NCBI GenBank assembly: GCA_002441305.1
Contig: DJVT01000001.1
Coordinates: 2,328-55,496, forward strand
Source of the DNA: Candidatus Omnitrophica bacterium UBA6249
GTDB taxonomy: Bacteria > Omnitrophota > Gorgyraeia > Gygaellales > Profunditerraquicolaceae
DNA length: 53,169 nucleotides
Direction: 5' to 3'
Shown: positions 463-46,048 of the stretch, one piece after another
Numbering within the stretch: position 1 is the first letter of the stretch
Layout of the letters: every line of letters begins with the position of its first letter
Made by a program: the position numbers and the translations under genes
Notes under the pieces: generated by a model
The model's database searches: none
What the model was told of the DNA's origin: nothing
The model's input: only the letters and a program-made list of their open reading frames with translations

Positions 463-471
463 TTTAATTAA

Positions 472-2543: not shown

Positions 2544-2602
2544 AATAAATTTCGGTTACGTATTGCTAATTATATATAAATATTATGTTCCTATTTTATT
2601 AA

Positions 2603-4042: not shown

Positions 4043-4269
4043 ACTTAAGAATAATAATTTTCTATTTAAATTAGATAGTGTATTTAATCAAGAGTTTTAT
4101 TTAAGTCAGGGACATTTTCAAATTCAATTTTACCGGATTTTTTGGATTATAATAAATTTATGCTTTATTAAAGTTGTTACAGTTTACAGCTAAAATTTGG
4201 CTGATTGTTTCTTTTGAGCCTTTTAACCTAATCCTCAATATATCTGTGGGCAAAAACGGGAAGGTTACT

Positions 4270-4458: not shown

Positions 4459-4499
4459 TCAATAAGGAGATACACCCCGCGCTAATTGGCCCCTGGCGC

Positions 4500-4509
4500 T
4501 TATTGGAAT
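4500..4509 (+). repeat. Right copy of TTATTGGAAT, in the loop of a 7-bp hairpin (CTGGCGC/GCGCCAG, 4493-4517)
   Basis: Exact match to 529-538. Lies at the AT-rich to GC-normal transition. Confidence 0.3.
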
Positions 4510-29397: not shown

Positions 29398-29425
29398 TTG
29401 ACAAAAGCGGGGATTGTGTTATATT
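29398..29425 (+). promoter_or_regulatory. Promoter of the first Fur-family gene
   Basis: TTGACA, 16-nt spacer, TGtTATATT (extended -10). TTGTCAA (29381-87) and TTGACAA (29398-404) also form an inverted repeat. Confidence 0.45.
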
Positions 29426-29431: not shown

Positions 29432-29446
29432 TGAAAACCATTTTCA
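29432..29446 (+). promoter_or_regulatory. Palindromic operator candidate TGAAAA-CCA-TTTTCA
   Basis: Perfect 6-3-6 palindrome between the -10 and the ATG of the Fur-family gene. Related to the palindrome at 29979-29997. Confidence 0.45.
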
Positions 29447-29479: not shown

Positions 29480-29956
29480 ATGCCGATGAGGAATTGCCGC
29501 GGCCAGGGCTGGTGGCACGGGAAATTCAGAGGGTGTGGTTACAGGCTTACTGTAGGCAGGGAAGCCATACTTGACCTTCTTTCCGGGGGAAAGGGACACC
29601 TTAGCGCGGAGGATATATACCTTAAGATACATGCGCGTTATCCCAACGTCGGGCTCACTACGGTTTACCGCACCCTGGATGTTCTATCCGGGCTAGGCAT
29701 GGTGCATAAGTTTGATTTCGGAGACGGCAGGGCCCGTTATGAATTGGCGCAGGGGCCCAAAGGGGAGCATCCTCACCACCATCATTTGGTCTGTACCTCA
29801 TGCAACAGGGTAATAGACTACACGGATTTCATAGATGACGAGGTTGAACTTTTAAGGAGAACGGAGAAGGGGCTGGGAGAGAAATATAATTTTAAGATCA
29901 CAAGCCATGTCATTCAGTTCTACGGCTTATGCGCTAAGTGCAGGGAGAACAAATAA
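29480..29956 (+). CDS. Fur-family transcriptional regulator with a Cys-containing N-terminal extension
   Basis: R.T..R..IL..L.....HLSAEDIY, TVYRTLD, HHHHL.C..C, C..C motifs. Extra N-terminus MPMRNCRGQGWWHGKFRGC. Confidence 0.85.
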   Translation: MPMRNCRGQGWWHGKFRGCGYRLTVGREAILDLLSGGKGHLSAEDIYLKIHARYPNVGLTTVYRTLDVLSGLGMVHKFDFGDGRARYELAQGPKGEHPHHHHLVCTSCNRVIDYTDFIDDEVELLRRTEKGLGEKYNFKITSHVIQFYGLCAKCRENK

Positions 29957-29978
29957 AGAGTATATTTTTTTAACTTGT

Positions 29979-29997
29979 AATGGAAATAGTTTCCATT
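29979..29997 (+). promoter_or_regulatory. Palindromic operator candidate AATGGAAA-TAG-TTTCCATT
   Basis: Perfect 8-3-8 palindrome 19 nt before the DUF5320 start. Shares the G(G/A)AAA-N3-TTT(C/T)C core with 29432-29446. Confidence 0.4.
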
Positions 29998-30015
29998 AAT
30001 AAAAAGGAGGTTGAT

Positions 30016-30354
30016 ATGCCGCGTTTTGACGGAAGCGGCCCGATGGGGTTTGGGCCGATGACAGGAGGGGGAAGAGGATATTGTGTTTCGGGCCCTAAGA
30101 GTGAAGGGGCGAGGTATTTTGGCAGGCGCGGAAACTCGGCGGCGGGTGGAGGAAGAGGGTTCAGGAATTGCTTTTACGCTACAGGACTGCCGGGCTGGAT
30201 AAGGCAGCAAAGAGGCATGCAGGCTTTTGGCGCAGGTGCGCCTGTTTCCTTGTCCTCAGAAGAGGAGTCCTCTGCGCTTAAAAGCCGCGAGGATTACCTT
30301 AAAGCCGAACTGGAAGCCGTCCAGTCTCGTTTACAGAACCTGCAGGACAAATAA
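30016..30354 (+). CDS. DUF5320-family protein
   Basis: AGGAGG RBS. MPRFDGSGPMGFGPMTGGGRGYC N-terminus and a C-terminal coiled coil, typical of DUF5320. Confidence 0.7.
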   Translation: MPRFDGSGPMGFGPMTGGGRGYCVSGPKSEGARYFGRRGNSAAGGGRGFRNCFYATGLPGWIRQQRGMQAFGAGAPVSLSSEEESSALKSREDYLKAELEAVQSRLQNLQDK

Positions 30355-30370
30355 GAAAGGAGCTTGTAAG

Positions 30371-30748
30371 ATGAAGGTGGGAGTAGTCTTGGAAGATGAA
30401 AACGGATTGAACAGCAACGTGTGCGCGCATTTCGGGCAGTGTAAGTTTTTCCTCCTGGCGGATATCGATGAGGGGAGCAGGAAGATAACCGCTACGCGGG
30501 TGGTGCCGAATACCTCCGTGCACGGCGGAGGGGGATGCGTCGCGGTAGACGAAATATTGCAGTATGGCATAACTCATGTCATTGCCGGAGGAATGGGCAT
30601 GGGGGCCCAGGCGAAATTAGCCCAGGCCGGGGTAAAGGTATTCGGGTCATGCGGAAACGTGCAGAAAGCGGTCGAGGATTTAATGAATAATACCCTGGGA
30701 GGGCTTGATGCCTGCGAGAGCCACGGGGAATCCGGTTCCTGCCATTAA
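30371..30748 (+). CDS. NifB/NifX-like (dinitrogenase FeMo-cofactor-binding fold) protein
   Basis: V..HFG....F......... ...G......L...G...VI.G.MG..A pattern. Cys-rich tail CESHGESGSCH. Confidence 0.75.
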   Translation: MKVGVVLEDENGLNSNVCAHFGQCKFFLLADIDEGSRKITATRVVPNTSVHGGGGCVAVDEILQYGITHVIAGGMGMGAQAKLAQAGVKVFGSCGNVQKAVEDLMNNTLGGLDACESHGESGSCH

Positions 30749-30763
30749 GAAGGGAGAGTCGAT

Positions 30764-31135
30764 ATGAAGATATGTATTACTTCTGCGGGAGAAACCCTGG
30801 ATTCAGCGGTTGACCCTCGTTTCGGGCGGTGCGCATACTTTATTTTCCTGGATACCGATACGGGGAATTTCCAGGCTCGCAATAACCCGAACGCGGAGTT
30901 CCAGGGGGGCGCGGGGATACAATCCGGCCAGCTTATGGCCGCAGAGGGAGTGAGCGCCGTCATCACGGGGAATATAGGGCCTAATGCACACCAGGTGCTT
31001 TCGGCATCCGGTATAGATATTTTTACCGGAGTCTGCGGTACGGTAAAAGAAGCCATAGAAGGATATAAGGCCGGGAAATATAAGCCTGCCAGTGCTCCGA
31101 ATACCGGGGCAAAATCCGGGATGCGGGAAAAATAA
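30764..31135 (+). CDS. NifB/NifX-like protein (paralogue)
   Basis: D.RFGR..YF...D...........GAG......L...GV..VI.GN.GP.A pattern. Confidence 0.8.
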   Translation: MKICITSAGETLDSAVDPRFGRCAYFIFLDTDTGNFQARNNPNAEFQGGAGIQSGQLMAAEGVSAVITGNIGPNAHQVLSASGIDIFTGVCGTVKEAIEGYKAGKYKPASAPNTGAKSGMREK

Positions 31136-31151
31136 ACCTCATGCATACAGG

Positions 31152-31787
31152 ATGAAAACACCTGCCAAAACGGATAATAAAGCCGCGCTTAATTACGAAC
31201 GTTACCTGGAAAGGATAAACTTTTACCGAAGCTTTGGTTATGACCTGGAAAAGGAAAGGGAGATCCTTCTTGATAAGTCCCTGCCCGTATCCGGGAAGAT
31301 ACTGGAGATCGGCACGGGAAAAGGCCACTTTGCCCTCGCTTTGGCAAAACGGGGCTCATATTTTGTAAGTATCGATATTTCCGCTTCCTCCCAGCATATA
31401 GCAGAAATGAACCTGCGCCATCTTGGGTTGAAGAAATATGCCAATTTAAGGATAATGGATGCCCGGAATATGGATTTTCCCGGAGAGAGCTTCGATGCGG
31501 TGTTTTCGGTGAATGTTTTCCATCACCTGGAGAGGCCATCGGAGGTCCTGGGCGAGGTAATCCGCGTCTTGAAGCCCGGGGGAAGAGTGATCTTAAGCGA
31601 TTTTAATGCCAGGGGAATGCGCCTGATTAATGCCTGCCATTCCTACGAGGGGCATAACCATGATTTTTCCAGGCAGGGGTTGAGCAGGGCCGCGGATTAC
31701 CTGTCCCGCCGGAATTTTCAAATCAAACAATACGAAAGCGAAGCCCAGCATATAATTATCGCCAGAGACAAAACAAAGAAAAAATGA
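31152..31787 (+). CDS. Class I SAM-dependent methyltransferase
   Basis: ILEIGTGKG motif I, LKPGG motif. The start codon is uncertain. Confidence 0.7.
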   Translation: MKTPAKTDNKAALNYERYLERINFYRSFGYDLEKEREILLDKSLPVSGKILEIGTGKGHFALALAKRGSYFVSIDISASSQHIAEMNLRHLGLKKYANLRIMDARNMDFPGESFDAVFSVNVFHHLERPSEVLGEVIRVLKPGGRVILSDFNARGMRLINACHSYEGHNHDFSRQGLSRAADYLSRRNFQIKQYESEAQHIIIARDKTKKK

Positions 31788-32653
31788 TTATTTCCATTGC
31801 CAGCGGAAAGGGAGGCACGGGCAAGACGACCGTGTCACTGAATCTCGCCCTTTCTTTAAACAACCCTCAGTTTCTTGATTGCGACGTGGAAGAGCCTAAC
31901 GCGCATTTGTTCCTCAAGCCTTCTATTGTTTCGAGCGAGACGGTATCTGTCCCGGTCCCCGAAGTCGATGAGTCGAAATGTACTTTTTGCGGGAAATGCG
32001 CCGAAGTCTGCGCCTATCACGCTATCGCGGTCATCCCTTCCGGGGAAAGAAGCAGAGGGAAGGTGCTGGTTTTTCCGAATTTATGCCATGGCTGCGGTTC
32101 CTGCGGATTGTTGTGCCCTTGCGGCGCGATCAAAGAAGCCCCCCGTAATATCGGAACGGTGGAGAGAGGGGTAAAAGGAGGCATCGATTTTATCCACGGC
32201 AGCCTGAATGTCGGGGAGGCGATGTCCGTGCCTTTGATCCGCAGGGTCAAGGAACATATCGAGTCCGGGAAGGACGTAGTCATCGATGCCCCTCCGGGCA
32301 CTTCCTGCCCGATGATCGCTGCGGTCAAAGGCAGCGATTTTTGTATCCTGGTAAGCGAGCCTACGCCGTTCGGCTTAAACGATTTTGTCCTGGCGGTGGA
32401 GGTGTTGAGGAAGCTTAAACTGCCTTTTGGAGCGGTAATCAACCGTTCGGATATCGGAGATTCTTCTCTTGAGGATTACTGCGGAAAAGAGGAAATCCCG
32501 GTTTTAATGCGTATTCCTTTCAGCAGGAAAATAGCCGAGGCTTATTCCCGGGGAGAGATAGGCGATCCGGTTTTTCAGGAGCTGAGAAATGATTTTCGCG
32601 GCATGCATGAACGCATACGCGGTCTTTCGGCAAAGGGAGGACGCCCTGCATGA
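31784..32653 (+). CDS. MinD/ParA/CooC-like P-loop ATPase with inserted 2x[4Fe-4S] ferredoxin domain
   Basis: SGKGGTGKTT deviant Walker A, CTFCGKCAEVC and CHGCGSCGLLCPCGAI clusters, DAPPG. ATGA overlap with the upstream gene. Confidence 0.85.
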   Translation: MIISIASGKGGTGKTTVSLNLALSLNNPQFLDCDVEEPNAHLFLKPSIVSSETVSVPVPEVDESKCTFCGKCAEVCAYHAIAVIPSGERSRGKVLVFPNLCHGCGSCGLLCPCGAIKEAPRNIGTVERGVKGGIDFIHGSLNVGEAMSVPLIRRVKEHIESGKDVVIDAPPGTSCPMIAAVKGSDFCILVSEPTPFGLNDFVLAVEVLRKLKLPFGAVINRSDIGDSSLEDYCGKEEIPVLMRIPFSRKIAEAYSRGEIGDPVFQELRNDFRGMHERIRGLSAKGGRPA

Positions 32654-33009
32654 TATCAAAGAAAGCTAAAAATAATTTTCTTGGCATAAACGGCAGGCGT
32701 TATAATTGCGCCCAGTCGGTAATCGAAGCCTGCTCCGGATTCCTGGATCTTTCTTGCGCCGACCTGGAGGCGCATGCCGGGCATGGAGGGGGTAGGGCCC
32801 CGGGAGGCTATTGCGGAGCCCTGCACGCGGCGTTATCCATCCTGCAGATTTACAGGCCGGAGAAAGCCGGAGAATTGAAGAAATTCTTCCTGGAGCAGTC
32901 GGGAGCCCTTACCTGTAAGGAGATCAAGTCTGCCGGCAAGACTCCCTGTGTTTCTTGCGTGGAAAATGCCGCCGGATTCCTTGGAATGGTATTCCGGGGG
33001 GAAAAATGA
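32650..33009 (+). CDS. C_GCAxxG_C_C family protein
   Basis: YNCAQSV..C, GYCGALHAA, CVSC arrangement. Confidence 0.7.
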   Translation: MISKKAKNNFLGINGRRYNCAQSVIEACSGFLDLSCADLEAHAGHGGGRAPGGYCGALHAALSILQIYRPEKAGELKKFFLEQSGALTCKEIKSAGKTPCVSCVENAAGFLGMVFRGEK

Positions 33010-33872
33010 AAAAGATAACTATAATCAGCGGCAAGGGCGGTACAGGCAAGACAGTGGTTAGTGCTTCTTTTGCCGCCCTGGCCAGGAATAAGATTATGGT
33101 AGACTGCGACGTGGACGCGGCGGACCTGCATTTAATCCTGCATCCGCGGGTGAGGGAAAGGCATGAATTCAGCGGCGGTTCGAGCGCAGCCGTCGACAAG
33201 GGTATTTGCGTAAGGTGCGGAAAGTGCCTTTCCGTATGCAGATTTTCTGCGGTCAGCCCGGATTTTGATATCGAAGGTTTTTCATGCGAGGGCTGCGGGC
33301 TTTGCGCGCGCCTTTGCCCTTCCGGGGCGATACGCATGGTAAAAAATGTTTCCGGGGAGTGGTTTGTTTCGGATACCGCATACGGCCCTTTAGTGCATGC
33401 CCGCCTTGGGGCGGCGGAGGAGAATTCCGGGAAACTGGTCTCGAAGATCAGGGAGCGCGCGGAGGAGATGGCGCAAAAAGAAGGGTTCGATTATGTAATT
33501 GCCGACGGCCCTCCGGGGATAGGCTGCCCGGTAATCGCTTCCCTCTCCGGAGCCGACCTGGCTTTGATCGTCACGGAACCTACCCTTTCCGGCCTGCATG
33601 ATGCCGCCAGGGTTATAAAAACCGCAAAACAGCTGAAGGTTCCGTTAAGGCTTGCCGTAAACAAATACGATTTAAATCCCTCCATGTCGGAGGAGATCGA
33701 AAGATACTGTTCCGGAGAATCGGTTCCGCTTTGCGCAAAGATTCCTTTTGACAGGAGGGTGGTGGAGTCGGTGCTTGAAGGAAAACCAGCGGCGGAATTG
33801 ACCGGGTGCGCGGCGGCCGAGGAGATCCGCAGGATTTGGCATGAGCTGGAAACAACGCTGAGAGGAGGATAG
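33006..33872 (+). CDS. MinD/ParA/CooC-like P-loop ATPase with inserted 2x[4Fe-4S] ferredoxin domain (paralogue)
   Basis: SGKGGTGKTV, CVRCGKCLSVC, CEGCGLCARLCPSGAI, DGPPG. ATGA overlap. Confidence 0.85.
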   Translation: MKKITIISGKGGTGKTVVSASFAALARNKIMVDCDVDAADLHLILHPRVRERHEFSGGSSAAVDKGICVRCGKCLSVCRFSAVSPDFDIEGFSCEGCGLCARLCPSGAIRMVKNVSGEWFVSDTAYGPLVHARLGAAEENSGKLVSKIRERAEEMAQKEGFDYVIADGPPGIGCPVIASLSGADLALIVTEPTLSGLHDAARVIKTAKQLKVPLRLAVNKYDLNPSMSEEIERYCSGESVPLCAKIPFDRRVVESVLEGKPAAELTGCAAAEEIRRIWHELETTLRGG

Positions 33873-34658
33873 GTGGAGCAATCCGATAAATTGAATGCAA
33901 AACATTGTTTAGTGGTGATGAGCGGTAAAGGGGGCGTGGGCAAAACTACGGTGGCGGTCAACCTGGCGCAGTCCCTTTCTCTTTTAGGCAAAAAAACGGG
34001 TTTATTGGACGTTGATTTGCACGGGCCGAATATCGCAAAGATGCTCGGCATAGAGAGCCGTAGGATGCAGATTTCTGAATCCGGCATAATACCGGTAGAA
34101 GTGAACAGAAACCTTAAAGCAGTCAGCATCGCTTTATCCGGGAATAACCCTGATCAGCCGATTATTTGGAGAGGCCCGGCCAAGTCAACGGTTATCCGCC
34201 AGTTCCTTGAGGAAGTGCAATGGGGGGCATTGGATTATTTGATCATCGATTCGCCTCCCGGTACGGGAGATGAACCGTTGAGCGTCTGCCAGATGGCTCC
34301 GCGCCTGGACGGGGTAATTATAGTGACTACGCCTCAGGATGTGGCTGTGCTGGATGCGCGCAAGAGCGTTTTGTTTGCCAGGGAGATCAAAGTCCCGGTG
34401 GCCGGAATTATCGAGAATATGAGCGGTTTTGTCTGTCCGCATTGCCGGAAGGATCTGGATATTTTCAAGAAGGGGGAAGGACGGAAAGCGGCGGAGGATT
34501 TGAATGTTCCGTTTTTAGGAAGCGTGCCGTTCTGCGCGGAGTTCGTTGATTCTGCGGACAGGGGAATTCCTTTTGCCATGTCTTCGGGCGAAACGGCAGG
34601 CTCGGAGCCCTTCATGAAGATAGTGGAAGGGATAAGAAAGTTTACCGGAGACGCCTGA
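33873..34658 (+). CDS. Mrp/NBP35/ApbC-family Fe-S cluster carrier ATPase (GTG start)
   Basis: SGKGGVGKTT, DSPPGTGDE, CPHC motifs. Confidence 0.85.
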   Translation: MEQSDKLNAKHCLVVMSGKGGVGKTTVAVNLAQSLSLLGKKTGLLDVDLHGPNIAKMLGIESRRMQISESGIIPVEVNRNLKAVSIALSGNNPDQPIIWRGPAKSTVIRQFLEEVQWGALDYLIIDSPPGTGDEPLSVCQMAPRLDGVIIVTTPQDVAVLDARKSVLFAREIKVPVAGIIENMSGFVCPHCRKDLDIFKKGEGRKAAEDLNVPFLGSVPFCAEFVDSADRGIPFAMSSGETAGSEPFMKIVEGIRKFTGDA

Positions 34659-35569
34659 TGCGTCTTTCTTTGGATTGTATACCTTGTTTTTTCAGGCAGG
34701 CGCTTGAGGGAAGCAGGCTCATCGGGGCGTCTTCAAAGCGGAAGAAGCAGATCCTGGACGAATTTGCCTCCCTGATCCCTTCCATACCGCTCAGCGCCAC
34801 TCCACCCGAGATAGCCAGGCTGGGTTATGGCATTTTAAGAAGGGCAAGCCGGGGCGACCCTTATAAAAGAATAAAGATAAGAAGCAACCGTTTTGCCCTG
34901 AGCCTGCTGGGAAGGCTGAGAAAAAAAGTCTTTTCTTCGCGGGACAGGCTTTTGACTGCCCTGAAGCTTGCTATTGCCGGTAATATCATAGATTTTGGCG
35001 TGAAGAATAACCTGGATATAAGGAATGAATTGAAAAAGATACTCTCCAGGGAGAGCAGAGCGGAACAGCGCAGGGCTTCGGTGTTCCATTATGCGGAGTT
35101 CAAACGCTCCCTTGATTCTTCGGGGAAGATCCTCTATCTTGCGGATAATGCGGGAGAGACTTTGTTTGACCGCATCCTGCTCGAAGAGATAAAAAGGATA
35201 TATCCAGGCAAGGAGGTTCTTTACGCCGTCAAGGAGCGGCCGGTTATCAACGACGCCTTGGTTGAAGACGCGCAGGTATGCGGGGTCGGTAAATTCGCAA
35301 AGATTATCTCCAACGGTTCGGACGCCCCGGGCACGGTGCTTTCTTTGTGCTCGCGGGATTTCAAAAAGGCCTATAAAAACGCGGATATGATAATCAGCAA
35401 AGGCCAAGGCAATTTCGAGTCTCTCTCCGGACAGAGGAGGCCGATTTTCTTTTTATTCATGGTCAAATGCCCGGTTGTAGCCGGGGAATCAGGATGCAGG
35501 ATGGGGGATATCGTATTACTTTATTCTCCGGGAAAAGGGCGCAAAGGCAGCCGGGCGGAGAACAGATGA
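34658..35569 (+). CDS. DUF89 (ARMT1-like damage-control phosphatase) family protein
   Basis: C..C....., LADNAGE..FD, KGQGNFE motifs. TGATG overlap. Confidence 0.75.
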   Translation: MRLSLDCIPCFFRQALEGSRLIGASSKRKKQILDEFASLIPSIPLSATPPEIARLGYGILRRASRGDPYKRIKIRSNRFALSLLGRLRKKVFSSRDRLLTALKLAIAGNIIDFGVKNNLDIRNELKKILSRESRAEQRRASVFHYAEFKRSLDSSGKILYLADNAGETLFDRILLEEIKRIYPGKEVLYAVKERPVINDALVEDAQVCGVGKFAKIISNGSDAPGTVLSLCSRDFKKAYKNADMIISKGQGNFESLSGQRRPIFFLFMVKCPVVAGESGCRMGDIVLLYSPGKGRKGSRAENR

Positions 35570-36279
35570 GGATAAAGGTAATAGCTACGGGTTCCAGCAA
35601 ATGGGAGCGTTTTACGGGAAGGTGGGGGGTTTCTTTTTTAATCGGGGAAGACCTGCTTTTCGATTCTTTCGGAGATGCCGGCGTACTGTTACGGAATATG
35701 CGCAGGTTCGGAGTGGATAGCTCAAAGATAAAGCATCTGGTCCTGTCCCATGAGCATTGGGATCATACCGCGGGAACTTGCGAGATTGTTTCCGGGCGGA
35801 AGGATATTTCTACATATATATGCCCGGGGTTTTGCGAGGAGGCAAAGCAGAAGATCTCTTCCTTTGCCCCATGCCTTATAGAATGCGAAGGGCCTGTTTT
35901 TATAAGAGAAGGTGTGTTCTCTACCGGACAGATGCGGGGTGCCCATGAGGGAGACTGCATTTTTGAGCAGGGGCTGGTCGTAAAATCTCCTTGCGGGCTT
36001 GCCGTTGTCACCGGGTGCGCCCACCCGGGAATAATCAATATCTTGAACAGGGTAAAAGAATTATTCCCGGGAGAGGGGATCGGCTGCGTGTTCGGCGGTT
36101 TTCACCTTAAGGACAGCAAAGAAGGGGAAATTTCGGATATTATTTCCGGGATGCGGGATTTGGGGGTTGCCAGGGTTGCCCCTACGCATTGCACCGGCAG
36201 AAAAGCAACTGAGATGATGCGCAGATCGTTCTGCGGAGGCTTTGTAAAAGTCAGGGAAGGGGAGACCCTGGATTTATAA
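35566..36279 (+). CDS. MBL-fold metallo-hydrolase
   Basis: LSHEHWDHTAG metal motif. ATGA overlap. Confidence 0.75.
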   Translation: MRIKVIATGSSKWERFTGRWGVSFLIGEDLLFDSFGDAGVLLRNMRRFGVDSSKIKHLVLSHEHWDHTAGTCEIVSGRKDISTYICPGFCEEAKQKISSFAPCLIECEGPVFIREGVFSTGQMRGAHEGDCIFEQGLVVKSPCGLAVVTGCAHPGIINILNRVKELFPGEGIGCVFGGFHLKDSKEGEISDIISGMRDLGVARVAPTHCTGRKATEMMRRSFCGGFVKVREGETLDL

Positions 36280-36312
36280 AAATAAAAAATACTTGACAAA
36301 ATGCGGAGATAT

Positions 36313-36328
36313 GTTAGACTTGTCTAAC
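36313..36328 (+). promoter_or_regulatory. Operator GTTAGAC-TT-GTCTAAC (copy 1 of 3)
   Basis: Perfect 7-2-7 palindrome overlapping a TTGACA(36293)-16-TAGACT promoter, 36 nt before the dtxR-like ATG. Confidence 0.6.
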
Positions 36329-36363
36329 AATAGAGATCGATGAGGGCAGCGGCGGGGGAGAAG

Positions 36364-36819
36364 ATGAAAAAAGTAAGCTCCAGCATGGAGGATTACCTGG
36401 AGACGGTTTATTTCCTGGAAAAGAAACACGGGTTTGCCAGAGTGAGCGATATAGCTTCCAGGATCGGGGTGAAAAAGCCCAGCGTCAACACGGCGTTGAA
36501 GAATCTTGCCGGGAAAGGGCTCCTGGAGCATGAGAAATACGGCTCCGTATCCCTTACCAAGCAAGGCAGGGACCTGGCCGGTGAGCTCCAGGGGAAGGAA
36601 GATATACTTTTCCGTTTTCTTACCGAGTATTTGTTTATCGAGCCAGGAACAGCCAGGGAGGAGGCCTGCAGGCTGGAGCATTCCGTGGGGAAGATCACTC
36701 TTTCCAGGCTGACAAGCTTTTTTGCCTTTATCGAAAGCGTGCTTGCCGGCAAATCATCCCCGGATGGCCCGCGCTCTCTCGAGCTCCATATGAAAAGGGG
36801 ACGTAAACAGTTCAGGTAG
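36364..36819 (+). CDS. DtxR/MntR-family metal-dependent transcriptional regulator
   Basis: MEDYLE.VY.L........RVSDIA..IGVKKPSV......L...GLL......G...LT..G pattern. Confidence 0.85.
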   Translation: MKKVSSSMEDYLETVYFLEKKHGFARVSDIASRIGVKKPSVNTALKNLAGKGLLEHEKYGSVSLTKQGRDLAGELQGKEDILFRFLTEYLFIEPGTAREEACRLEHSVGKITLSRLTSFFAFIESVLAGKSSPDGPRSLELHMKRGRKQFR

Positions 36820-36851
36820 GGTGAGGAAATGGAAAATTTTTTGTTCATGAT

Positions 36852-36867
36852 GTTAGTTATGTCTAAC
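36852..36867 (+). promoter_or_regulatory. Operator GTTAGTT-AT-GTCTAAC (copy 2 of 3)
   Basis: Same GTTAG-N6-CTAAC frame, 31 nt before the permease ATG. Confidence 0.5.
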
Positions 36868-36897
36868 TTAATAAGACGCAGGGAGAGGGATTAGCTT

Positions 36898-37803
36898 ATG
36901 CCTATCGGCGGGTTTATGAATTCTTTCTGGAGATACCTGCTGGAGGTTGCCCCGGCTTTGCTTTTGGGTTTTGTAATCAGCGGGGTGGTGCATGAGTTTA
37001 TCCCGGACTCTTGGGTGGAGAAACACCTGGGCGGAAGGGGGATGAAAGGAGTCCTCTGGTCAACCTTGGTGGGCACGGTTGTCCCGGTTTGCTGCTGGGG
37101 GTGCCTGCCGATCGCCGTGAGTTTCCGCCGTAAAGGCGCTTCTTTAGGTCCTATCCTGGCCATACTTATCGTTACTCCCGCCACTTCCATTAACGCGCTT
37201 TTGGTAACCGCTCAACTTTTGGGGTTTAAATTTGCCATTTATTTGTTCTTTACCGTGATACTTATGGGCTTACTTGCAGGTTTTATCGGCAATAGGATCG
37301 CCTTTGGCAGGGGGGAAGGAAGCCTTAGGCCCGAAGGATGCGCCTGCAAAGAAAAAGAAGAGTGCCATTGCAGCAAGGAGAAGAAAAAGAACCCGTCCGC
37401 CAGGTGTTTATCAATCCTTAAATACGCTTTTGTAGAAATGCCCAGGGAAGTCGGGAAGGAAGCTCTTTACGGCCTGGCGCTGGCGGCAGCCGTGGATTCC
37501 GTTATGCCGGTAGGCTACTTGATAAAGAATTACCTGAAAGGATGGGCGGGGTATGCATTCGCCCTGGTTTTCGGACTGGCGACATTTTTTTGCGCAACAA
37601 TGGGAGTGCCGGTCGTGGATGCCCTTATCCGCCAGGGGCTAAGCCGGGGGGCGGGATTTGTCCTGCTTCTGGCCGGGCCGATCACCAGCTATGGCACGAT
37701 TTTTGTCTTAAGGAAAGAGTTCGGATGGAAGGTGCTGGCGCTTTATCTTTCCCTGGTAAGCGTTCTTTCGCTGCTTGCCGGGTACGCGTTCAGCCTTTCC
37801 TGA
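36898..37803 (+). CDS. Putative metal permease (PF03773/ArsP-DUF318-like) with Cys/His-rich loop
   Basis: Multi-TM, VPVCCWGC motif, cytoplasmic loop EGCACKEKEECHC. Confidence 0.65.
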   Translation: MPIGGFMNSFWRYLLEVAPALLLGFVISGVVHEFIPDSWVEKHLGGRGMKGVLWSTLVGTVVPVCCWGCLPIAVSFRRKGASLGPILAILIVTPATSINALLVTAQLLGFKFAIYLFFTVILMGLLAGFIGNRIAFGRGEGSLRPEGCACKEKEECHCSKEKKKNPSARCLSILKYAFVEMPREVGKEALYGLALAAAVDSVMPVGYLIKNYLKGWAGYAFALVFGLATFFCATMGVPVVDALIRQGLSRGAGFVLLLAGPITSYGTIFVLRKEFGWKVLALYLSLVSVLSLLAGYAFSLS

Positions 37804-37819
37804 TTTTTTTAAAGGAAAA

Positions 37820-37835
37820 GTTAGAATAGTCTAAC
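37820..37835 (+). promoter_or_regulatory. Operator GTTAGAA-TA-GTCTAAC (copy 3 of 3)
   Basis: Same frame, 15 nt before the feoA ATG. Confidence 0.55.
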
Positions 37836-37849
37836 AAAATGGAGGAAAT

Positions 37850-40822: not shown

Positions 40823-40860
40823 AATCCAGAACCCTTGAGCAGACGGGTTCTGGATTTTTA
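40823..40860 (+). terminator. Intrinsic terminator of the feo operon
   Basis: AATCCAGAACCC / GGGTTCTGGATT 12-bp stem followed by T-rich sequence. Confidence 0.85.
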
Positions 40861-40870
40861 TTGGATAAAA

Positions 40871-43735
40871 ATGTTTAAGTTCGGGAAGAAAATTATTTCA
40901 TTTTTAATCTGCTGCAGCCTTATCTGGCAGCAGAGCGGGATTTGCCAGGCTGCAGGAGAAGCAGACCTTTCCGGGGTTTTTACCGGGTCCTGCGCTGCGG
41001 TGAACGGGAAATACCGAAGCGCGCATTTAAGGGGAATCTCTTATGATGCGTCTTTCGGCAAGCTGAGATTGCTGCTGGAGAGGGGCGAAGCGGGCGGTTT
41101 AAAGGATGAGAGCTCCGAATTATTCAAGTATTTCCTGCTTGGGCTGGCGCTTCCCGGAAGTTCTTTCTGGGTAAACTTAAGCCCGGGCGGCAAAGATGAG
41201 ATCATCGATCCTTTTCTTGAGGCCACGGACATGGGCAGGCTGTTTCTTGAATCCGATGTAAGGCTTAAGAAGGATACCGCGCGCATGCTCTCCCCGGAAA
41301 CAGCGGAGGGGAGGGAGTACTGGGAGAAGTTTTACCGGAAGGCGGAAGAAATCTACGGTTTCCAGGCCCCTTCCTTTTCCATAAATACGCGCACTTGGAT
41401 TGTCCCGGATGAAATCATCATCAGGGAAAACAAAGACTCGGCTTATATATACAAGGCAACCCTGAAGGTGATGCTGGAACAGGATTATTTGGGCATAAAA
41501 GGGAAAGAGAGTTATAAAGATACCCAATGGGGGGAGCTTAATGAATATTCCGCCGGGTTGATGCGAAAATCGATCATCCCCGGCTTGAACCGGAGAATAA
41601 ATAATTCTCAGGAATACGCATCTTTACGCCAGATTTATTATTCTTTGATTATGGCGCAGTGGTTCAAGTCCAGATTTGCCGGGGAGGAGGGGGAATACTG
41701 CGCTCTTATCGACAGCAGGGATCTTAACGGGTTAAGGTCTGCCCGCCGCTGGTCGAAAGACACCTATTTTTCCCAGTACCGGAAATCCTTTAACAAGGGT
41801 GAGTTCGAGATAAAAGAGCAGAGGTATGGTTTTTCAGGACGGGTTTTACGCAGTTACCTGAGCGGGGGGATAAATATCGCGCCGGTCATCCGGAGCGACA
41901 ATGTCGGCAAGCAGGTTGTTGACCGTAACGGCGGCAGCACGCTTCTTTTGAGCGGTTGCGGAGAGGCAGTGGGCACGGGCAGGGAGGTCAGGGTTGAGAT
42001 AACATCCGGCAGGGAAGCCGGGATGGTTGACGGAGAAGGGCCCCGGGGCAGTCCTATCGCGCAGGAAAAAATTGCTGACGGCACAAATAATAATTCTTCC
42101 GGCGCCCTCGGGGGAATAGGCCGTAAGATAACCCGCGGCCTGCTCATCGGGGCGGTTACCCTGATGCTCCTTTTTATCCCTTCTTCTTCAGTCCAGCGTT
42201 TTGATGCCCCGCCTGATTCTGCGCCGGGCATTACCGCAAGTTATGATGAGTATGACCCGGATAACCCCCGGGAGGTCCTGGAGACACTGGAGGATTATCA
42301 AAAAAGGCTTATCCAGGCCGAGGAGACGATAGAAAAACTGGAGGAGGAAAACGCTCTCCTTCTCGGCGGAGGAGAGGAGGCGGTAGAGGAGGGCGAAGAG
42401 GAGGAAGGGGGAGGGAATAAATGGCTGCTGCTTGGAGGAGGAGCCATTGTATGGGAAACCCTGCATACGCTTATTTTATTTTTTGCAGGCCGTCTTTCGA
42501 CAAAGCTGAAATTGAAGAAGAAAAAGGCAGGAGGACAGGAAAAAAGCGGGGAAGACGGGCACGGGAATCATAATCATATCGAGGAACTTATCTCAAAGTT
42601 TAAGGCCTGGAAAGATTCCCGCCCGGGAAGGAGGAAAGTGGATATTCCGCAGGGGGATAATCCTAAGGCTGGGATAAGCGAAGAAGAGATAGGGATAGTT
42701 ATCGAGTCTTTAAGGGATTCCGGGACCGCTTATGGGGCCAGGCTTGTTTCTTCTAAAAAAATAGATTTAAGATCGAGGATACGTTTTATCCATGATGAAA
42801 TCGGCTTTGATATCGTAAAAGGAGAGGGCAGGGGGCTGCTTGGCAGAAGAACCAGCACCTTGAAAGCGCAGAAGATATTGCTTGAGAGCCACGGGCTGCC
42901 TCTCAATACGCCTAATTTTCTTTTATCAAGGGAACATTTTATCAAAGAAGAGTTCAAGAAGGCCGGGAGATTGCCGGGCTGGAGCGGCCTTAACGCAGGG
43001 GAAAGGCTGGCTTTATTACACCATTTTTGCGAGGTGTACGGGTTAAGCCCTTTCCGGGCGGCGGACAGGCGGTGGTCCGGCCTGCTAAGTTATTTTAGCC
43101 TTCCGGACGACAGAATAGAGTATACGTGGCGCGCAATAGATCTTATCCAAAGATACGAGCTGTCCCGTTTCAGCGCCGATCCGGATCTCCTCAGGACGGG
43201 GTTCCGACTTTCCAAAATAAGGGCTGCTGTCCAGGCTTTGGGATCGCCTGTTACAAATTCTATGGAATCTTACCTTAGTCCCGAAGGATTCGAACTTTAC
43301 AGGGAAAGAGAGGGCGGAGAATCCCGTATGGACGGGCGGAAACGCGGGGAATACGGAGGTATCGATTTACGCAGCCTTCCCATAAACAGGCAGGCGCTGG
43401 ACAATCTAAGCACGGCCGGACTCCCCGCATCAGCCGACCGACTCGAGACATTGAATATCAACCGGGAGCTGCGCGATATTTACAGATTGATTGACGCGGG
43501 GATAACGCCGTCCCCGGAGAGGATACGCGAGTTCGTTCAGGCTTGCTGCTTAAAGGATGAAATCGCCACTAACCAGGACAGGATCATGCGTTGTATAGCC
43601 GAAATAATAAGGTTGGACGAGGAGAGGCTGTGCCCGACAGATATTATGCTGCGGGATATTCTTGTAGTGCTTGAGTCGAGCAGGAACAGCCGGGAGTTAA
43701 GGGGCGCTTTTTTCGGCATGAGCGCCGGGAGTTGA
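40871..43735 (+). CDS. Large envelope protein (954 aa), unassigned: signal peptide, ~350-aa exo-domain, two TM helices flanking an acidic coiled coil, ~450-aa C-terminal region
   Basis: Signal MFKFGKKIISFLICCSLIWQQSGICQAAG. TM LLIGAVTLMLLFIPSS and WLLLGGGAIVWETLHTLILFFAG. EEAVEEGEEEEGGG acidic tract. No catalytic motif recognised. Confidence 0.6.
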   Translation: MFKFGKKIISFLICCSLIWQQSGICQAAGEADLSGVFTGSCAAVNGKYRSAHLRGISYDASFGKLRLLLERGEAGGLKDESSELFKYFLLGLALPGSSFWVNLSPGGKDEIIDPFLEATDMGRLFLESDVRLKKDTARMLSPETAEGREYWEKFYRKAEEIYGFQAPSFSINTRTWIVPDEIIIRENKDSAYIYKATLKVMLEQDYLGIKGKESYKDTQWGELNEYSAGLMRKSIIPGLNRRINNSQEYASLRQIYYSLIMAQWFKSRFAGEEGEYCALIDSRDLNGLRSARRWSKDTYFSQYRKSFNKGEFEIKEQRYGFSGRVLRSYLSGGINIAPVIRSDNVGKQVVDRNGGSTLLLSGCGEAVGTGREVRVEITSGREAGMVDGEGPRGSPIAQEKIADGTNNNSSGALGGIGRKITRGLLIGAVTLMLLFIPSSSVQRFDAPPDSAPGITASYDEYDPDNPREVLETLEDYQKRLIQAEETIEKLEEENALLLGGGEEAVEEGEEEEGGGNKWLLLGGGAIVWETLHTLILFFAGRLSTKLKLKKKKAGGQEKSGEDGHGNHNHIEELISKFKAWKDSRPGRRKVDIPQGDNPKAGISEEEIGIVIESLRDSGTAYGARLVSSKKIDLRSRIRFIHDEIGFDIVKGEGRGLLGRRTSTLKAQKILLESHGLPLNTPNFLLSREHFIKEEFKKAGRLPGWSGLNAGERLALLHHFCEVYGLSPFRAADRRWSGLLSYFSLPDDRIEYTWRAIDLIQRYELSRFSADPDLLRTGFRLSKIRAAVQALGSPVTNSMESYLSPEGFELYREREGGESRMDGRKRGEYGGIDLRSLPINRQALDNLSTAGLPASADRLETLNINRELRDIYRLIDAGITPSPERIREFVQACCLKDEIATNQDRIMRCIAEIIRLDEERLCPTDIMLRDILVVLESSRNSRELRGAFFGMSAGS

Positions 43736-43762
43736 GGACACGCGGGGAAGGAGGGCAGGAAA

Positions 43763-43963
43763 ATGGGTGAAGGCAAGATGCTGGTGAAGAACCAGCCGCT
43801 GGGGAATGTTTTTAAATGCCCCGGAGGCATCGTGCACATAAATGTAGGCGGGGTATCCCTGCATTTTGAAGAACATGTGTTCCTGGAATTCGCCGGGATG
43901 GTAAAAGAAGCGTCATCCAGATTGATCGACGAAGGCTTAAAGAGCATTCTGGAGGATGGATAA
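43763..43963 (+). CDS. Hypothetical small protein (66 aa)
   Basis: GGAAGGAGG RBS; 27 nt after the 954-aa gene. Confidence 0.5.
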   Translation: MGEGKMLVKNQPLGNVFKCPGGIVHINVGGVSLHFEEHVFLEFAGMVKEASSRLIDEGLKSILEDG

Positions 43964-44072
43964 TATACGGAAAGGAGGCACCATGAAAGAAGAAGGGGGT
44001 CGGATAGGCCCAGATGGGAAAACAGGGTAAAGATTATATTGCTAAAACTTGTCAATGAAGGAGGTAAATGAA

Positions 44073-45434
44073 ATGTTCTTAAGAAGCATATTAAGCTGCA
44101 GTCTTGTTTTAGGGGTGCTGGCCACAGGCGTCCCCGCGTTCGCGGATGAGGGGGCGACTTCGGCGGAACTCAAGAAGATGAGAATCCGCCTTGAGGCGCT
44201 TGAGCAAAAGGTGGCCGAGCAGGATTCTTATATAGCAAAGCAGAGGACTGAATCCGCAGGTCAGAAGGAAAAGATCGCCCAATACGAGTCCCAGCTTTCC
44301 CGTTTCGAGGAAAACCTGCATCGTATGCCCGGTCAGCCTATCCAGTTGTTAGAGGGGCTGGAGTTGGGTGTGGGGGGTACGGTTATCCTGCAGGGCGCGG
44401 ATAACAGCAATTACCGCGACGGGGATACCGAGAAATCCTCCCGGGCGGATGCCTCGTATTCGGCGGATGTAACTCTTTCCAAGGAGTTCGAGGAGGTAGG
44501 CGGCAGGGCATTTTTGCATCTTGAGGCTGGCCAGGGTTCAGGGCTCGAAGACAACCTTATTGTTTATTCCAACGTGAACAGGGATGCCGGAGACAGCGAG
44601 GCCAAAGCCGAACTTACCGAGTTTTGGTACGAGCAGGATCTTTTTAAGGATAAGGCGGTTGTCACTTTCGGTAAACTCGACTCAAGCGCGTATTTTGACC
44701 AGAATGAAGCCGCTAATGACGAGACCAGCCAATTTCTGGGGAGGATTTTCCGTAACTCGCCTGTTATCGAGTTTCCGGATAATGGAGCCGGAGTGCGTTT
44801 TGCCTGGCTTCCCGTTGACTGGCTCGAGTTGGGATACGGCGTATTTGACGGGACGGGGAGTTGGGAGGATATAGGGGACAGCCTGTTCAATATCGGGCAG
44901 GTCCATTTTAAAACAAACCTTTTCGGCCTTTCCGGCAACTACCGTTTTTATGCCTGGAATAACAATGCGGACCATATAAAATGGCTGGATTCGGGCAAAA
45001 CGAAAGAATCATCTTATGGCCTTGGTTTGAGTTTCGACCAGAAGCTGAATGATGCGGTTACCCTGTTTGCCCGTTACGGATGGCAGAACCCCGAGGCGTA
45101 TAATCCCGAAATAACCGCCGCGGACGGCTCGAATTACTCTCTCGAGCAATCCTGGAGCGCAGGCTTTCAGGTAGAGGGCGCTTCCTGGGGCAGGGAGAAG
45201 GATGTGTTCGGTTTTGCTGTAGGCCAGATCATGCCATCCGATGACTACAAGAAGGCAAATAACCTGTCCGCCAAGACCGAAGGGCATCTGGAGGCCTATT
45301 ATAATATACACATTAACGACCATCTTTCGGTCAGCCCGGATGTGCAGTACATCTGGAATCCTTACGGTAAAGATGTAGCGGGCAATACGGGAGGCATATT
45401 CGTAGGAGGATTGAGAGCGCAGGTGGATTTTTAA
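44073..45434 (+). CDS. Outer-membrane porin (OprB-like beta-barrel) with N-terminal coiled coil
   Basis: AGGAGG 8 nt before the ATG. Signal ending PAFA. Heptad region ELKKMRIRLEALEQKVAEQ.... Alternating beta-strand pattern. Terminal ...RAQVDF (C-terminal Phe). Confidence 0.65.
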   Translation: MFLRSILSCSLVLGVLATGVPAFADEGATSAELKKMRIRLEALEQKVAEQDSYIAKQRTESAGQKEKIAQYESQLSRFEENLHRMPGQPIQLLEGLELGVGGTVILQGADNSNYRDGDTEKSSRADASYSADVTLSKEFEEVGGRAFLHLEAGQGSGLEDNLIVYSNVNRDAGDSEAKAELTEFWYEQDLFKDKAVVTFGKLDSSAYFDQNEAANDETSQFLGRIFRNSPVIEFPDNGAGVRFAWLPVDWLELGYGVFDGTGSWEDIGDSLFNIGQVHFKTNLFGLSGNYRFYAWNNNADHIKWLDSGKTKESSYGLGLSFDQKLNDAVTLFARYGWQNPEAYNPEITAADGSNYSLEQSWSAGFQVEGASWGREKDVFGFAVGQIMPSDDYKKANNLSAKTEGHLEAYYNIHINDHLSVSPDVQYIWNPYGKDVAGNTGGIFVGGLRAQVDF

Positions 45435-45439
45435 AAGAG

Positions 45440-45468
45440 TTGACAAATAGTAATAATTACTATATAGT
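45440..45468 (+). promoter_or_regulatory. Promoter of the second Fur-family gene (TTGACA-17-TATAGT)
   Basis: The -10 ends 6 nt before the ATG at 45475 and no SD is present, so the mRNA may be leaderless. Confidence 0.5.
45448..45462 (+). promoter_or_regulatory. Operator TAGTAAT-A-ATTACTA (7-1-7 palindrome)
   Basis: Perfect palindrome inside the promoter spacer. An extra TAGTAAT half-site lies at 45465-45471. Confidence 0.65.
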
Positions 45469-45474
45469 AATTAA

Positions 45475-45915
45475 ATGCGAGAACAGGAACTTCCGGTAGC
45501 CATGGAGAATTTCAGAAACAAATGCAGGGAGTTTGGGTTGAAAATAACTCCCCAGCGCGCGGCTATTTATAAGGAGCTCTTGCAGGCAAGCGACCACCCT
45601 ACTATCGACAGCATCCTGAAGAAAGTAAGGGTGGTCCTGCCCAGCATTTCTTTTGATACGGTTTACAGGACGGTAATCTCTTTCAGCGAAGCGGGGATTA
45701 TCCACATGGTGGGAGGGTTCGGAGGATCGAGGCGTTTTGACGCCGATACAAGCAGGCACCACCATTTTAAATGCATCAAATGCGGGAAAATATTTGATTT
45801 CTTGAGCGATTATTATGATAATGTGAAAATCCCCGAGGAGTTCAGCCGCAATTTCAAAGTTCTGTCGAAAAGGGTATTATTGGAAGGGATTTGCAGGGAG
45901 TGTTGTAAAAAGTAA
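45475..45915 (+). CDS. Fur/PerR-family transcriptional regulator
   Basis: KITPQR..I...L......T...I, TVYRT, HHHF.C..CG, C..CC motifs. Confidence 0.85.
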   Translation: MREQELPVAMENFRNKCREFGLKITPQRAAIYKELLQASDHPTIDSILKKVRVVLPSISFDTVYRTVISFSEAGIIHMVGGFGGSRRFDADTSRHHHFKCIKCGKIFDFLSDYYDNVKIPEEFSRNFKVLSKRVLLEGICRECCKK

Positions 45916-45933
45916 TTTTTTTTAGTTAGCATA

Positions 45934-45948
45934 TAGTAATAGTTACTA
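45934..45948 (+). promoter_or_regulatory. Operator TAGTAAT-A-GTTACTA (second copy)
   Basis: 6/7 + 7/7 match to 45448-45462. An extra TAGTAAC half-site lies at 45951-45957. Sits ~100 nt upstream of the ferritin-like gene. Confidence 0.6.
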
Positions 45949-46048
45949 AATAGTAACCGCAAGAACCGGTAAAATCGGGAAAGGAGGGGTGAGTAAAACA
46001 GGGTATTTGATTATGCAGGTATATCTTTAGACAAAAAAGGAGGAAGAA

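Follow-up and report, generated by a model that had tools for sequence, protein, structure and literature searches.

The Orange Protein (ORP) complex, described since 2011 (PMC6345978, PMC8359166, PMC3897727), contains the ferredoxin-motif MinD-like ATPases Orp3 and Orp4, the small iron-sulfur (Fe-S) protein Orp5, the Orange protein Orp8, and Orp9 (PMC6345978). Orp3, Orp4 and Orp8 co-purify, the Orange protein holds a metal-sulfide cluster non-covalently, which in Desulfovibrio gigas is [S2MoS2CuS2MoS2], and MrpORP (Orp9) hands Fe-S clusters of the [4Fe-4S] type to the Orp3/Orp4 ATPases in vitro (PMC6345978). In Desulfovibrio, orp expression is observed only at low redox potential (PMC8359166). 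Among anaerobe-specific gene clusters of unsettled physiological role, the one that encodes this complex ranks with the most widely conserved. Here, a stretch of 53,169 nucleotides (nt) from Candidatus Omnitrophica bacterium UBA6249 (assembly GCA_002441305.1, contig DJVT01000001.1, positions 2,328 to 55,496), referred to below as the window, was analysed for the relationship and probable function of a block of ten genes at window positions 30016-36279. A preliminary description made from the sequence had left the function of this block unassigned and had named no known system for it; this was wrong, as the locus is a homolog of the ORP complex locus.

The locus shares with the ORP locus of D. 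vulgaris Hildenborough and D. alaskensis G20 (Orp3, Orp4, Orp5, Orp7, Orp8, Orp9) the pair of NifX-fold proteins, the two adjacent ATPases, an Mrp/NBP35 partner and the restriction to anaerobes. It differs in being a single co-directional operon, probably of 11 genes, with a Fur-family regulator and Fur-box-like operators, whereas the Desulfovibrio genes form two divergent sigma54 operons under OrpR and IHF; in an Mrp protein without a fused Di-Nase domain; and in additional genes for DUF5320, methyltransferase, C_GCAxxG, DUF89 and metallo-beta-lactamase (MBL) proteins within an iron-homeostasis neighbourhood. The favoured explanation, to which a probability of roughly 0.6 is given, is that the locus is the Omnitrophota version of the anaerobe-specific ORP system and serves the ATP-dependent, Fe-S-loaded trafficking of a metal-sulfide, probably Fe-S, cluster under Fur control.

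A second described system of relevance is IssA of Pyrococcus furiosus, a thioferrate Fe-S storage protein with a tail of pI 10.7 that contains 15 Gly, 7 cationic and 14 aromatic residues in 70 (PMC5524996). MTH1175 was placed in the IssA clade by Vaccaro et al. (PMC5524996). IssA and the carriers encoded here share a NifX-fold globular domain (IPR003731), but the NifX-fold proteins of the window have an acidic to neutral pI and no long cationic tail; a Gly/Arg/aromatic-rich, Cys-containing cationic segment is found on a separate protein, DUF5320. The locus further differs from IssA in its partner ATPases and Mrp, and in a likely regulatory logic opposite to that needed for a storage protein.

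Organisation of the locus

The features of the operon and its upstream region are listed below by window position and strand, with domain-match values in brackets; the ten genes are called g1 to g10 in order, and L001 is, with L002, the nearest relative locus found.

29398..29425, + strand: sigma70-like promoter, TTGACA-16 nt-TATATT with a TG extension (11/12 matches; -35 and -10 elements kept in L001)
29432..29446: candidate operator 1, TGAAAAC-C-ATTTTCA, a 7-1-7 palindrome resembling a Fur box, shortly downstream of the -10 element
29480..29956, + strand: Fur-family regulator gene, probable first gene of the operon (PF01475, 1.7e-30)
29978..29998: candidate operator 2, a perfect 9-3-9 palindrome TAATGGAAA-TAG-TTTCCATTA, 17 nt upstream of the g1 start
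30016..30354, + strand: g1, DUF5320 protein (1.6e-21)
30371..30748, + strand: g2, NifX-fold protein of the Cys/His-bearing type, Nitro_FeMo-Co (PF02579, 3.8e-19)
30764..31135, + strand: g3, NifX-fold protein of the Orange-protein/MTH1175 type, Orp8-like (PF02579, 6.7e-24)
31152..31787, + strand: g4, class I S-adenosylmethionine (SAM)-dependent methyltransferase, accessory (scores under every equivalog cutoff)
31784..32653, + strand: g5, ATPase A, CbiA/MinD type with two 4Fe-4S motifs, Orp3/Orp4-type ortholog
32650..33009, + strand: g6, small Cys-rich C_GCAxxG_C_C protein, lineage-specific accessory (8.1e-11)
33006..33872, + strand: g7, ATPase B, CbiA/MinD type with two 4Fe-4S motifs, paralog of g5
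33873..34658, + strand: g8, Mrp/NBP35 Fe-S carrier ATPase with a GTG start (PF10609, 4e-92)
34658..35569, + strand: g9, DUF89/ARMT1-like metal-dependent phosphatase-family protein, accessory (4.9e-67)
35566..36279, + strand: g10, short MBL-fold protein of an uncharacterised subfamily, accessory (weak MBL match)

Ten co-oriented open reading frames (ORFs) were thus found on the + strand exactly where the preliminary description had placed them, and its family calls were all reproduced with Pfam and NCBIfam. Its picture of ten tightly coupled genes with gaps of at most 16 nt is accurate: the successive spacers from g1 to g10 measure 16, 15, 16, -4, -4, -4, 0, -1 and -4 nt, with ATGA overlaps at 31784, 32650, 33006 and 35566, TGATG at 34658, and TAG followed by GTG at 33873. 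The analysis likewise supports a single operon. However, the transcription unit probably comprises 11 genes and starts with the Fur-family gene, since the only strong promoter-like site lies ahead of that gene, at 29398-29425, whereas the 59-nt spacer between fur and g1 yielded none. A search for intrinsic terminators inside the operon gave weak consensus matches only, none of them at a gene boundary with a convincing T-run. One wastewater metatranscriptome run contained an exact 150-nt contig, covering 30611-30760, which reads across the g2 stop codon into the g2-g3 spacer. Tight spacing by itself is an ordinary operon feature, and the significance of the block rests on conserved synteny.

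Orthology of the core proteins to reference orp loci

Bona fide ORP proteins were located with the sequence of PDB entry 2WFB, and the surrounding loci were fetched from Desulfovibrio sp. X2 and from a Desulfobaccales metagenome-assembled genome (MAG). The ORPs of these two reference loci (L003 and L004) are 69-72% identical to the D. gigas ORP; both loci have the order ORP - ATPase - ATPase - NifX-fold, and PAS sigma54 activators adjoin the Desulfovibrio one. In BLASTP comparisons, g5 was 45-46.5% identical to the first reference ATPase (30-32% for the cross-pair) and g7 was 44-46% identical to the second (31-32% for the cross-pair), while g3 matched the reference ORPs at 36-41% and g2 the second NifX-fold gene of the reference loci at 36-37% identity. 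Judged by these identities, the four core genes g3, g2, g5 and g7 are 1:1 orthologous with those of bona fide orp loci, and the clean 1:1 pattern argues that the duplications of ATPase and carrier are older than the split of these phyla. The single-domain Orp8 homolog of the window is g3, whose best PDB match was MTH1175 (1EO1, 2.7e-19), with the D. gigas Orange protein (2WFB) at 8.8e-18; g5 and g7 are the neighbouring pair of paralogous MinD-like ATPases, both with two [4Fe-4S] motifs.

The Mrp protein g8 matched PF10609 at 4e-92 over model positions 2-245 of 246, which places it within the Mrp/NBP35 family, and its translation carries the deviant Walker A motif SGKGGVGKT and a CPHC (CxxC) motif. 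Against the MrpORP model NF041136 it scored 341 bits over positions 5-248 of 365, under the cutoff of 450, and against the ApbC equivalog 205 bits, under the cutoff of 348. The matched part covers the whole P-loop domain, so that g8 corresponds to the P-loop half of MrpORP/Orp9. Both g2 and g3 matched the C-terminal domain of the MrpORP model, g2 at positions 273-364 of 365. No fused two-domain MrpORP was therefore found in the locus: the two domains correspond to g8 and g2, which are separate genes, five genes apart, with the Di-Nase-like domain residing in g2. Nor does the locus have the divergent sigma54/OrpR/IHF operons of Desulfovibrio, in place of which a sigma70-like promoter and a Fur-family gene are found.

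The earlier proposal that these are metallocluster-type proteins is borne out by the Desulfovibrio homologs, in which Mrp is reported to pass Fe-S clusters on to the ATPases and the NifX-fold protein to bind a metal-sulfide cluster (PMC6345978). The g2 sequence contains C18-x-H20-F-G-x-C24, H51 and C115-x-x-H118, of which H20, C24, H51 and C115 are kept, in agreement with the CxHFGxC and C-terminal Cys/His motifs given by Pardoux et al. for MrpORP's Di-Nase domain. The ORP-type protein g3 has no conserved Cys, which fits non-covalent binding of a cluster. The pI values of g3 and g2 are 6.55 and 5.38, and the tail of g3 is about 20 residues long.

Both ATPases keep the signature-lysine Walker A motif SGKGGTGKT, and each has a ferredoxin domain inserted behind its first beta-alpha unit, with eight conserved ferredoxin cysteines apiece, all 16 of which are kept. 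A sequence search of the PDB returned no solved structure with the 2x[4Fe-4S] ferredoxin insert of an Orp3/Orp4-type ATPase. The paralogs also share a switch-II cysteine, within PPGTSC175P in g5 (codon at 32306-32308) and PPGxGC174P in g7 (codon at 33525-33527), which is kept in 93% and 91% of homologs, respectively, and at whose position Mrp has Asp. Its location would correspond to the cluster ligand region of NifH/BchL-type proteins, and the pair of switch-II cysteines could form an inter-subunit metal or cluster ligand. The AlphaFold model of g5 (predicted local distance difference test, pLDDT, 90) was compared with solved structures using Foldseek, and the nearest folds were MinD, FleN/FlhG, Cfd1, ATPase-type HypB, ApbC and BchL at template modelling (TM) scores of 0.5-0.7; of these, MinD, FleN, Cfd1/ApbC, HypB and BchL could not be separated as the nearest relative. 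The CooC-type metal insertion invoked in the preliminary description is an analogy only, as the fold search does not distinguish between MinD, HypB, Cfd1/ApbC and BchL. With the dimeric SIMIBI-class NTPases, which mature metal centres or place structures (MinD, FleN/FlhG, Cfd1/Nbp35/ApbC, ATPase-type HypB, BchL/NifH), g5 and g7 have the fold and the deviant Walker A motif in common, but they differ in forming what is probably an obligate heteropair of two ancient paralogs with an inserted 2x[4Fe-4S] ferredoxin.

The DUF5320 protein g1 consists of a cationic segment (residues 1-76; pI 11.2, with 21 Gly, 10 Arg and Lys, 10 aromatic residues and 2 Cys, of which Cys23 is conserved) followed by an acidic helical tail. 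No literature on DUF5320 was found. Its N-terminal motif MPRxDGTGPxGxG is common to Zn-ribbon proteins of 75 residues found in 12 of the 80 loci described below. These proteins of about 75 residues, present for example in L006, L016, L019, L025, L028, L051, L053, L055 and L083, combine a DUF5320-like N terminus, MPRGDGTGPxGQGPGTGRG, with a four-Cys ribbon, CxCPxCG...CPxCG, and from these motifs are candidate counterparts of Orp5 / Dde_3197, the small Cys-rich [2Fe-2S] protein. A fusion of NifX and DUF5320, which would amount to an IssA-like architecture, was considered and rejected, as in none of the ORFs does a NifX domain stand in frame ahead of the DUF5320 motif.

Conservation of synteny across genomes

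An exhaustive profile search yielded 874 clusters (50% identity level) at E<=1e-30. Among their representatives, many of about 600 residues (P0241, P0243-P0257 and others) matched g5 twice, in separate stretches, a sign that ATPase A and ATPase B are naturally fused in them, and such fusions in turn argue for an obligate heterodimer. A scan of species-representative genomes gave 80 loci, which are spread over more than 20 phyla of bacterial and archaeal anaerobes, among them Planctomycetota, Omnitrophota, Clostridia, WOR-3, Desulfobacterota, Chloroflexota, Acidobacteriota, Ignavibacteria and Zixibacteria and, on the archaeal side, Bathyarchaeia, Methanosarcinales, Methanocellales, Thermoplasmatota and Altiarchaeota. 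Neighbouring genes were counted on the same strand from -4 to +5 kb of ATPase A, using stop-to-stop ORFs and hidden Markov models built from the window proteins and from recurrent neighbours without an assigned family. The counts were as follows.

ATPase B: 78/80 loci
ORP-type NifX: 71/80 loci
Cys/His-type NifX (g2 type): 49/80 loci
DUF5320-type: 43/80 loci
Mrp: 42/80 loci
IscU-like NifU_N: 32/80 loci
FmdB-type zinc ribbon: 32/80 loci
Divergent third NifX type: 24/80 loci
MBL: 16/80 loci
DUF89: 15/80 loci
DUF134: 14/80 loci
Methyltransferase: 12/80 loci
Radical SAM: 12/80 loci
Sigma54 enhancer-binding protein of OrpR architecture (PAS and AAA+): 12/80 loci
DUF364: 10/80 loci
Fur: 8/80 loci
DUF59: 5/80 loci
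DtxR: 3/80 loci
C_GCAxxG: 1/80 loci, plus the close relatives L001 and L002

ATPase B directly follows ATPase A in 77 of the 80 loci, two of the three exceptions being contig ends, and 76 have at least one NifX-fold gene in the interval counted. The core genes are therefore not scattered in related genomes; scattering would have spoken against a common system. The full set of ten genes, by comparison, is not kept, and its reading as one conserved pathway has to be given up: the genes for methyltransferase, C_GCAxxG, DUF89 and MBL are accessories that vary between loci, and the 10-gene block is a lineage-specific assembly drawn from a shared accessory pool. Loci of Omnitrophota and Planctomycetota have a g4-type methyltransferase gene immediately upstream of that for ATPase A, and a DUF5320-type gene directly adjoins an ORP-type gene in 17 loci.

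The nearest relative (L001/L002; g5 72% identical) has the order Fur-DUF5320-NifX-ORP-methyltransferase-ATPase A-GCAxxG-ATPase B-MBL-DtxR-permease-FeoAAB. Mrp and DUF89 are missing from L001, in which ATPase B runs straight into the MBL gene (L001 position 12106), so that window positions 33873-35569 correspond to a clean two-gene indel in an otherwise collinear operon. Ten of the 11 window families occur, in a different order, in a Planctomycetia locus (L057), and a Clostridia MAG has the order DtxR-FeoA-FeoB-Fur-DUF5320-NifX-ORP-ATPase A-ATPase B-DUF89. The best relatives of g5, at 63-68% identity, are labelled Candidatus Omnitrophota, and the metagenomes that contain the locus, all of them from DNA, were taken at oil facilities, landfill and hydrocarbon sites and from groundwater.

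The survey identifies the ATPase pair with NifX-fold carriers as an ancient module common to Bacteria and Archaea, whose recurrent partners are Fe-S biogenesis proteins (Mrp, IscU-like and DUF59) and DUF5320, not division proteins, and which different lineages couple to different sensors, namely Fur, DtxR, sigma54 enhancer-binding proteins of OrpR architecture, or perhaps DUF134. Three aspects were not found in the accessible literature: the coupling to a Fur-family protein with a defined operator across phyla, DUF5320 and IscU-like proteins as frequent partners, and the split between Mrp and Di-Nase.

In archaeal loci (L018, L021, L046 and L078), a gene for DUF134, which has a helix-turn-helix resembling sigma70 region 4, adjoins the DUF5320 or NifX genes, at the position that is held in bacterial loci by Fur or a sigma54 activator. 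DUF134 may be the archaeal regulator of the ORP-type module.

Regulatory region

The Fur-family protein contains the PF01475 domain with HHHH-x-C-x-x-C motifs, and its best NCBIfam match was the Bacillus-type Fur (129 bits, under the cutoff of 220). It carries an N-terminal extension, WWHGKFRGCGYR. Fur proteins linked to ORP genes (window 29480-29551; L001, L007, L008, L009 and L060) share the unusual extension WWHGKFRG(C)GYR(L/M/I)T, which is rich in aromatic and cationic residues and might be an extra sensing or interaction module. Members of the same Fur subfamily are encoded beside ORP clusters in MAGs of Omnitrophota, WOR-3, Clostridia and Eubacteriales, and in at least four phyla ORP-type operons open with a Fur-family gene.

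Two palindromes, which resemble each other and the classical 7-1-7 Fur box, flank the Fur-family gene on both sides. The promoter followed by TGAAAAC-C-ATTTTCA at 29432-29446 is kept in the L001 alignment, whereas in the 21-nt palindrome TAATGGAAA-TAG-TTTCCATTA the arms are kept and the centre varies. A second Fur-box-like site, at 29981-29995, lies within this palindrome (29978-29998), and equivalents of operator 2 were found between fur and DUF5320 in L008 and L009. The pattern TG[AG]AAA-N3-TTT[CT]CA had eight exact matches in 1.2 Mb of sequence (window and loci) where about 0.3 are expected, and seven of the eight are at most 50 nt away from an end of a Fur gene linked to ORP genes, with such sites in the window, in L001, in an Omnitrophota locus and in a WOR-3 locus; versions with one or two mismatches were located upstream of Fur genes in two Clostridia-class loci. 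A candidate 7-1-7 inverted-repeat operator overlapping the regulator's own promoter is in keeping with the Fur/PerR/Zur proteins, from which the regulator differs in its N-terminal extension. No literature on Fur control of NifX-like genes was found. The preliminary description had spoken of a dedicated Fur-like repressor; an operon-linked Fur-family regulator with conserved palindromes was indeed identified, but that it is dedicated is unproven, as operators were searched in 53 kb only.

Control of the sigma54/OrpR type was rejected, since no -24/-12 promoter matched above chance upstream of the operon and no enhancer-binding protein gene is present in the 53-kb window.

Proposed function and alternative explanations

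The following mechanism would account for the composition of the locus. The ATPases g5 and g7 would form an obligate heterodimeric nucleotide switch, matured by the Mrp protein g8, which would use ATP and low-potential electrons from its ferredoxin domains to build, hold or hand over a metal-sulfide cluster, most likely Fe-S, on the NifX-fold carriers, with the cationic Gly/Arg-rich DUF5320 protein as an auxiliary binder or adaptor. All 11 genes would be transcribed from one sigma70-type promoter, and the operon's own Fur-family protein would repress it through the two Fur-box-like operators in an autoregulatory manner, so that expression would depend on the iron (metal) supply of the cell and not, as in Desulfovibrio, on redox control through sigma54/OrpR. 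The Fe-S assignment is favoured because Mrp, IscU-like and DUF59 neighbours recur, because of the Fur/DtxR/Feo context, and because neither recurrent Mo, W, Cu or division genes nor riboswitches were found. Should the system indeed traffic Fe-S clusters, it would add a component to the Fe-S metabolism of strict anaerobes, from which much of the ISC/SUF machinery of textbooks is absent. The Fur-coupled version brings with it a defined candidate operator.

Several points weigh against this explanation. The cluster known on the D. gigas Orange protein is Mo-Cu and not Fe-S (PMC6345978), and the only ORP phenotype reported in Desulfovibrio concerns the shape or the division of the cells (PMC8359166). 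The methyltransferase, C_GCAxxG, DUF89 and MBL genes have no explained role. As judged from its sequence, the Fur-family protein falls under every NCBIfam equivalog cutoff, so that its metal specificity cannot be deduced, and its regulon was searchable within 53 kb only. On the modelled structure, the fold search does not split a metallochaperone-like from a MinD-like ATPase. Finally, co-transcription was inferred from gene spacing, and the one metatranscriptome contig, the sole sign of RNA, is too little.

A broader proposal is put forward tentatively. The ORP-type module, made up of a heterodimeric ATPase with ferredoxin inserts, NifX-fold carriers and DUF5320 and often accompanied by Mrp and an IscU-like scaffold, could be a widespread, so far unrecognised accessory route by which anaerobes traffic, salvage or store Fe-S (metal-sulfide) clusters, switched here by a specialised Fur paralog, with DUF5320 as the free-standing counterpart of the cationic IssA tail that would bind anionic iron-sulfide species, and with the division phenotype of Desulfovibrio as a secondary effect.

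The favoured trafficking of a probable Fe-S cluster was weighed against four other explanations. In the first, which is judged improbable, the carrier sequesters or builds Mo(W)-Cu-S clusters, which arise in sulfidic habitats and would be loaded or unloaded by the ATPases, in the service of thiometallate detoxification or of Mo/W supply. This would agree with the homology of g3 to the D. gigas Orange protein and its [S2MoS2CuS2MoS2] cluster (PMC6345978), with the sulfidic and hydrocarbon habitats of the organism, and with the resemblance of the downstream permease to the SO_0444 Cu/Zn efflux family. The permease gene, however, is part of another unit, downstream of the operon, which has a DtxR-like operator of its own, and the regulators and transporters linked to the module are of the iron type (Fur, DtxR/MntR, Feo). 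The window has no riboswitch for Moco/Tuco or for another metal, and no mod, tup, moa, moe or cop genes were among the neighbour families recurring in at least four of the 80 loci.

Cell division or positioning, the original proposal for ORP in Desulfovibrio, holds that the MinD-like ATPases place the septum or another structure and that their clusters are only redox sensors. It derives from a D. vulgaris orpR mutant with morphological defects, from the polar location of MrpORP and from C-terminal amphipathic helices in Orp3 and Orp4 (PMC8359166, PMC6345978), and the closest solved folds of the g5 model, archaeal and bacterial MinD and FleN/FlhG, are in keeping with it. Although minD_arch and minD_bact are among the best NCBIfam matches, g5 and g7 score 56-71 bits against cutoffs of 202-213 (TIGR01968/TIGR01969), far too low for classification as MinD. 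The regulator in the window is of the metal type, and the recurrent neighbours of the ATPase pair are NifX-fold, Mrp, IscU-like, DUF59, Fur/DtxR and Feo genes, with no MinC, MinE, FtsZ or other division gene recurring near it in the 80 loci. A division role is accordingly considered unlikely for this locus.

Little credence is also given to Fe-S storage of the IssA kind, in which g3 and DUF5320 nucleate a thioferrate-like polymer that the ATPases mobilise. The composition of g1 residues 1-76 is close to that of the IssA tail (PMC5524996), but such a compositional likeness is not homology, and the NifX-DUF5320 fusion was not found. Although the best PDB match of g3 belongs to a protein placed in the IssA clade (PMC5524996), neither g3 nor g2, with pI values of 6.6 and 5.4, has a long tail. 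The adjacency of DUF5320-type and ORP-type genes in 17 loci and the iron-homeostasis genes in the surroundings would suit storage; a classical Fur repressor, in contrast, would turn the operon on in low iron, which is the opposite of what storage needs. Maturation of a nitrogenase cofactor in the manner of NifX/NafY, suggested by PF02579 as the domain of NifX, NafY and the NifB C terminus, is effectively refuted by gene context, since no nifHDK, nifB or nifEN was found among the larger ORFs scanned in the window, as had been noted in the preliminary description, or among the recurrent neighbours of the 80 loci, and among solved structures ORP and MTH1175, rather than NifX or NafY, are the nearest relatives.

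Accessory gene g10 and the wider neighbourhood

The best PDB matches of g10 were 7DCK (9.5e-31) and Tm1679 (1.2e-28), both uncharacterised, and no literature on MBL structures of this kind was found. Downstream of the operon, a DtxR/MntR-like gene, an ArsP_1 permease gene, two feoA genes and feoB follow. A palindrome, TGTTAGAC-NN-GTCTAACA, occurs three times in this region (36293-37836), at 36312 before the dtxR-like gene, where it overlaps a sigma70-like promoter, at 36851 before the permease gene and at 37819 before feoA; three such sites were obtained in 0 of 100 shuffles, and the palindrome is kept in L001. The dtxR-like, permease and feo genes are units separate from the ORP operon. Against the SO_0444 Cu/Zn efflux family, the ArsP_1 permease scored 210 bits, under the cutoff of 300.

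Downstream of feoB lies an ORF of 966 residues (40835-43735) without a Pfam or NCBIfam match, followed by a gene for an OprB-family porin. A second Fur-family gene, which is PerR-like, is located at 45475-45915 and a ferritin-like/rubrerythrin-like gene at 46049-46492. The genes at 40835-46492 extend the metal and oxidative-stress neighbourhood.

A search of the window for riboswitches and other RNA elements with Rfam at gathering thresholds matched only a 23S ribosomal RNA (rRNA) end and a 5S rRNA. These, the 3' end of the 23S rRNA and the 5S rRNA, stand at the start of the window and are followed by a segment of low GC content (34-37%; within positions 1-4500), which encodes an HD-domain protein (690-1886) and a SEFIR/TIR-domain protein (2603-4042) and may be a small defence or mobile island.

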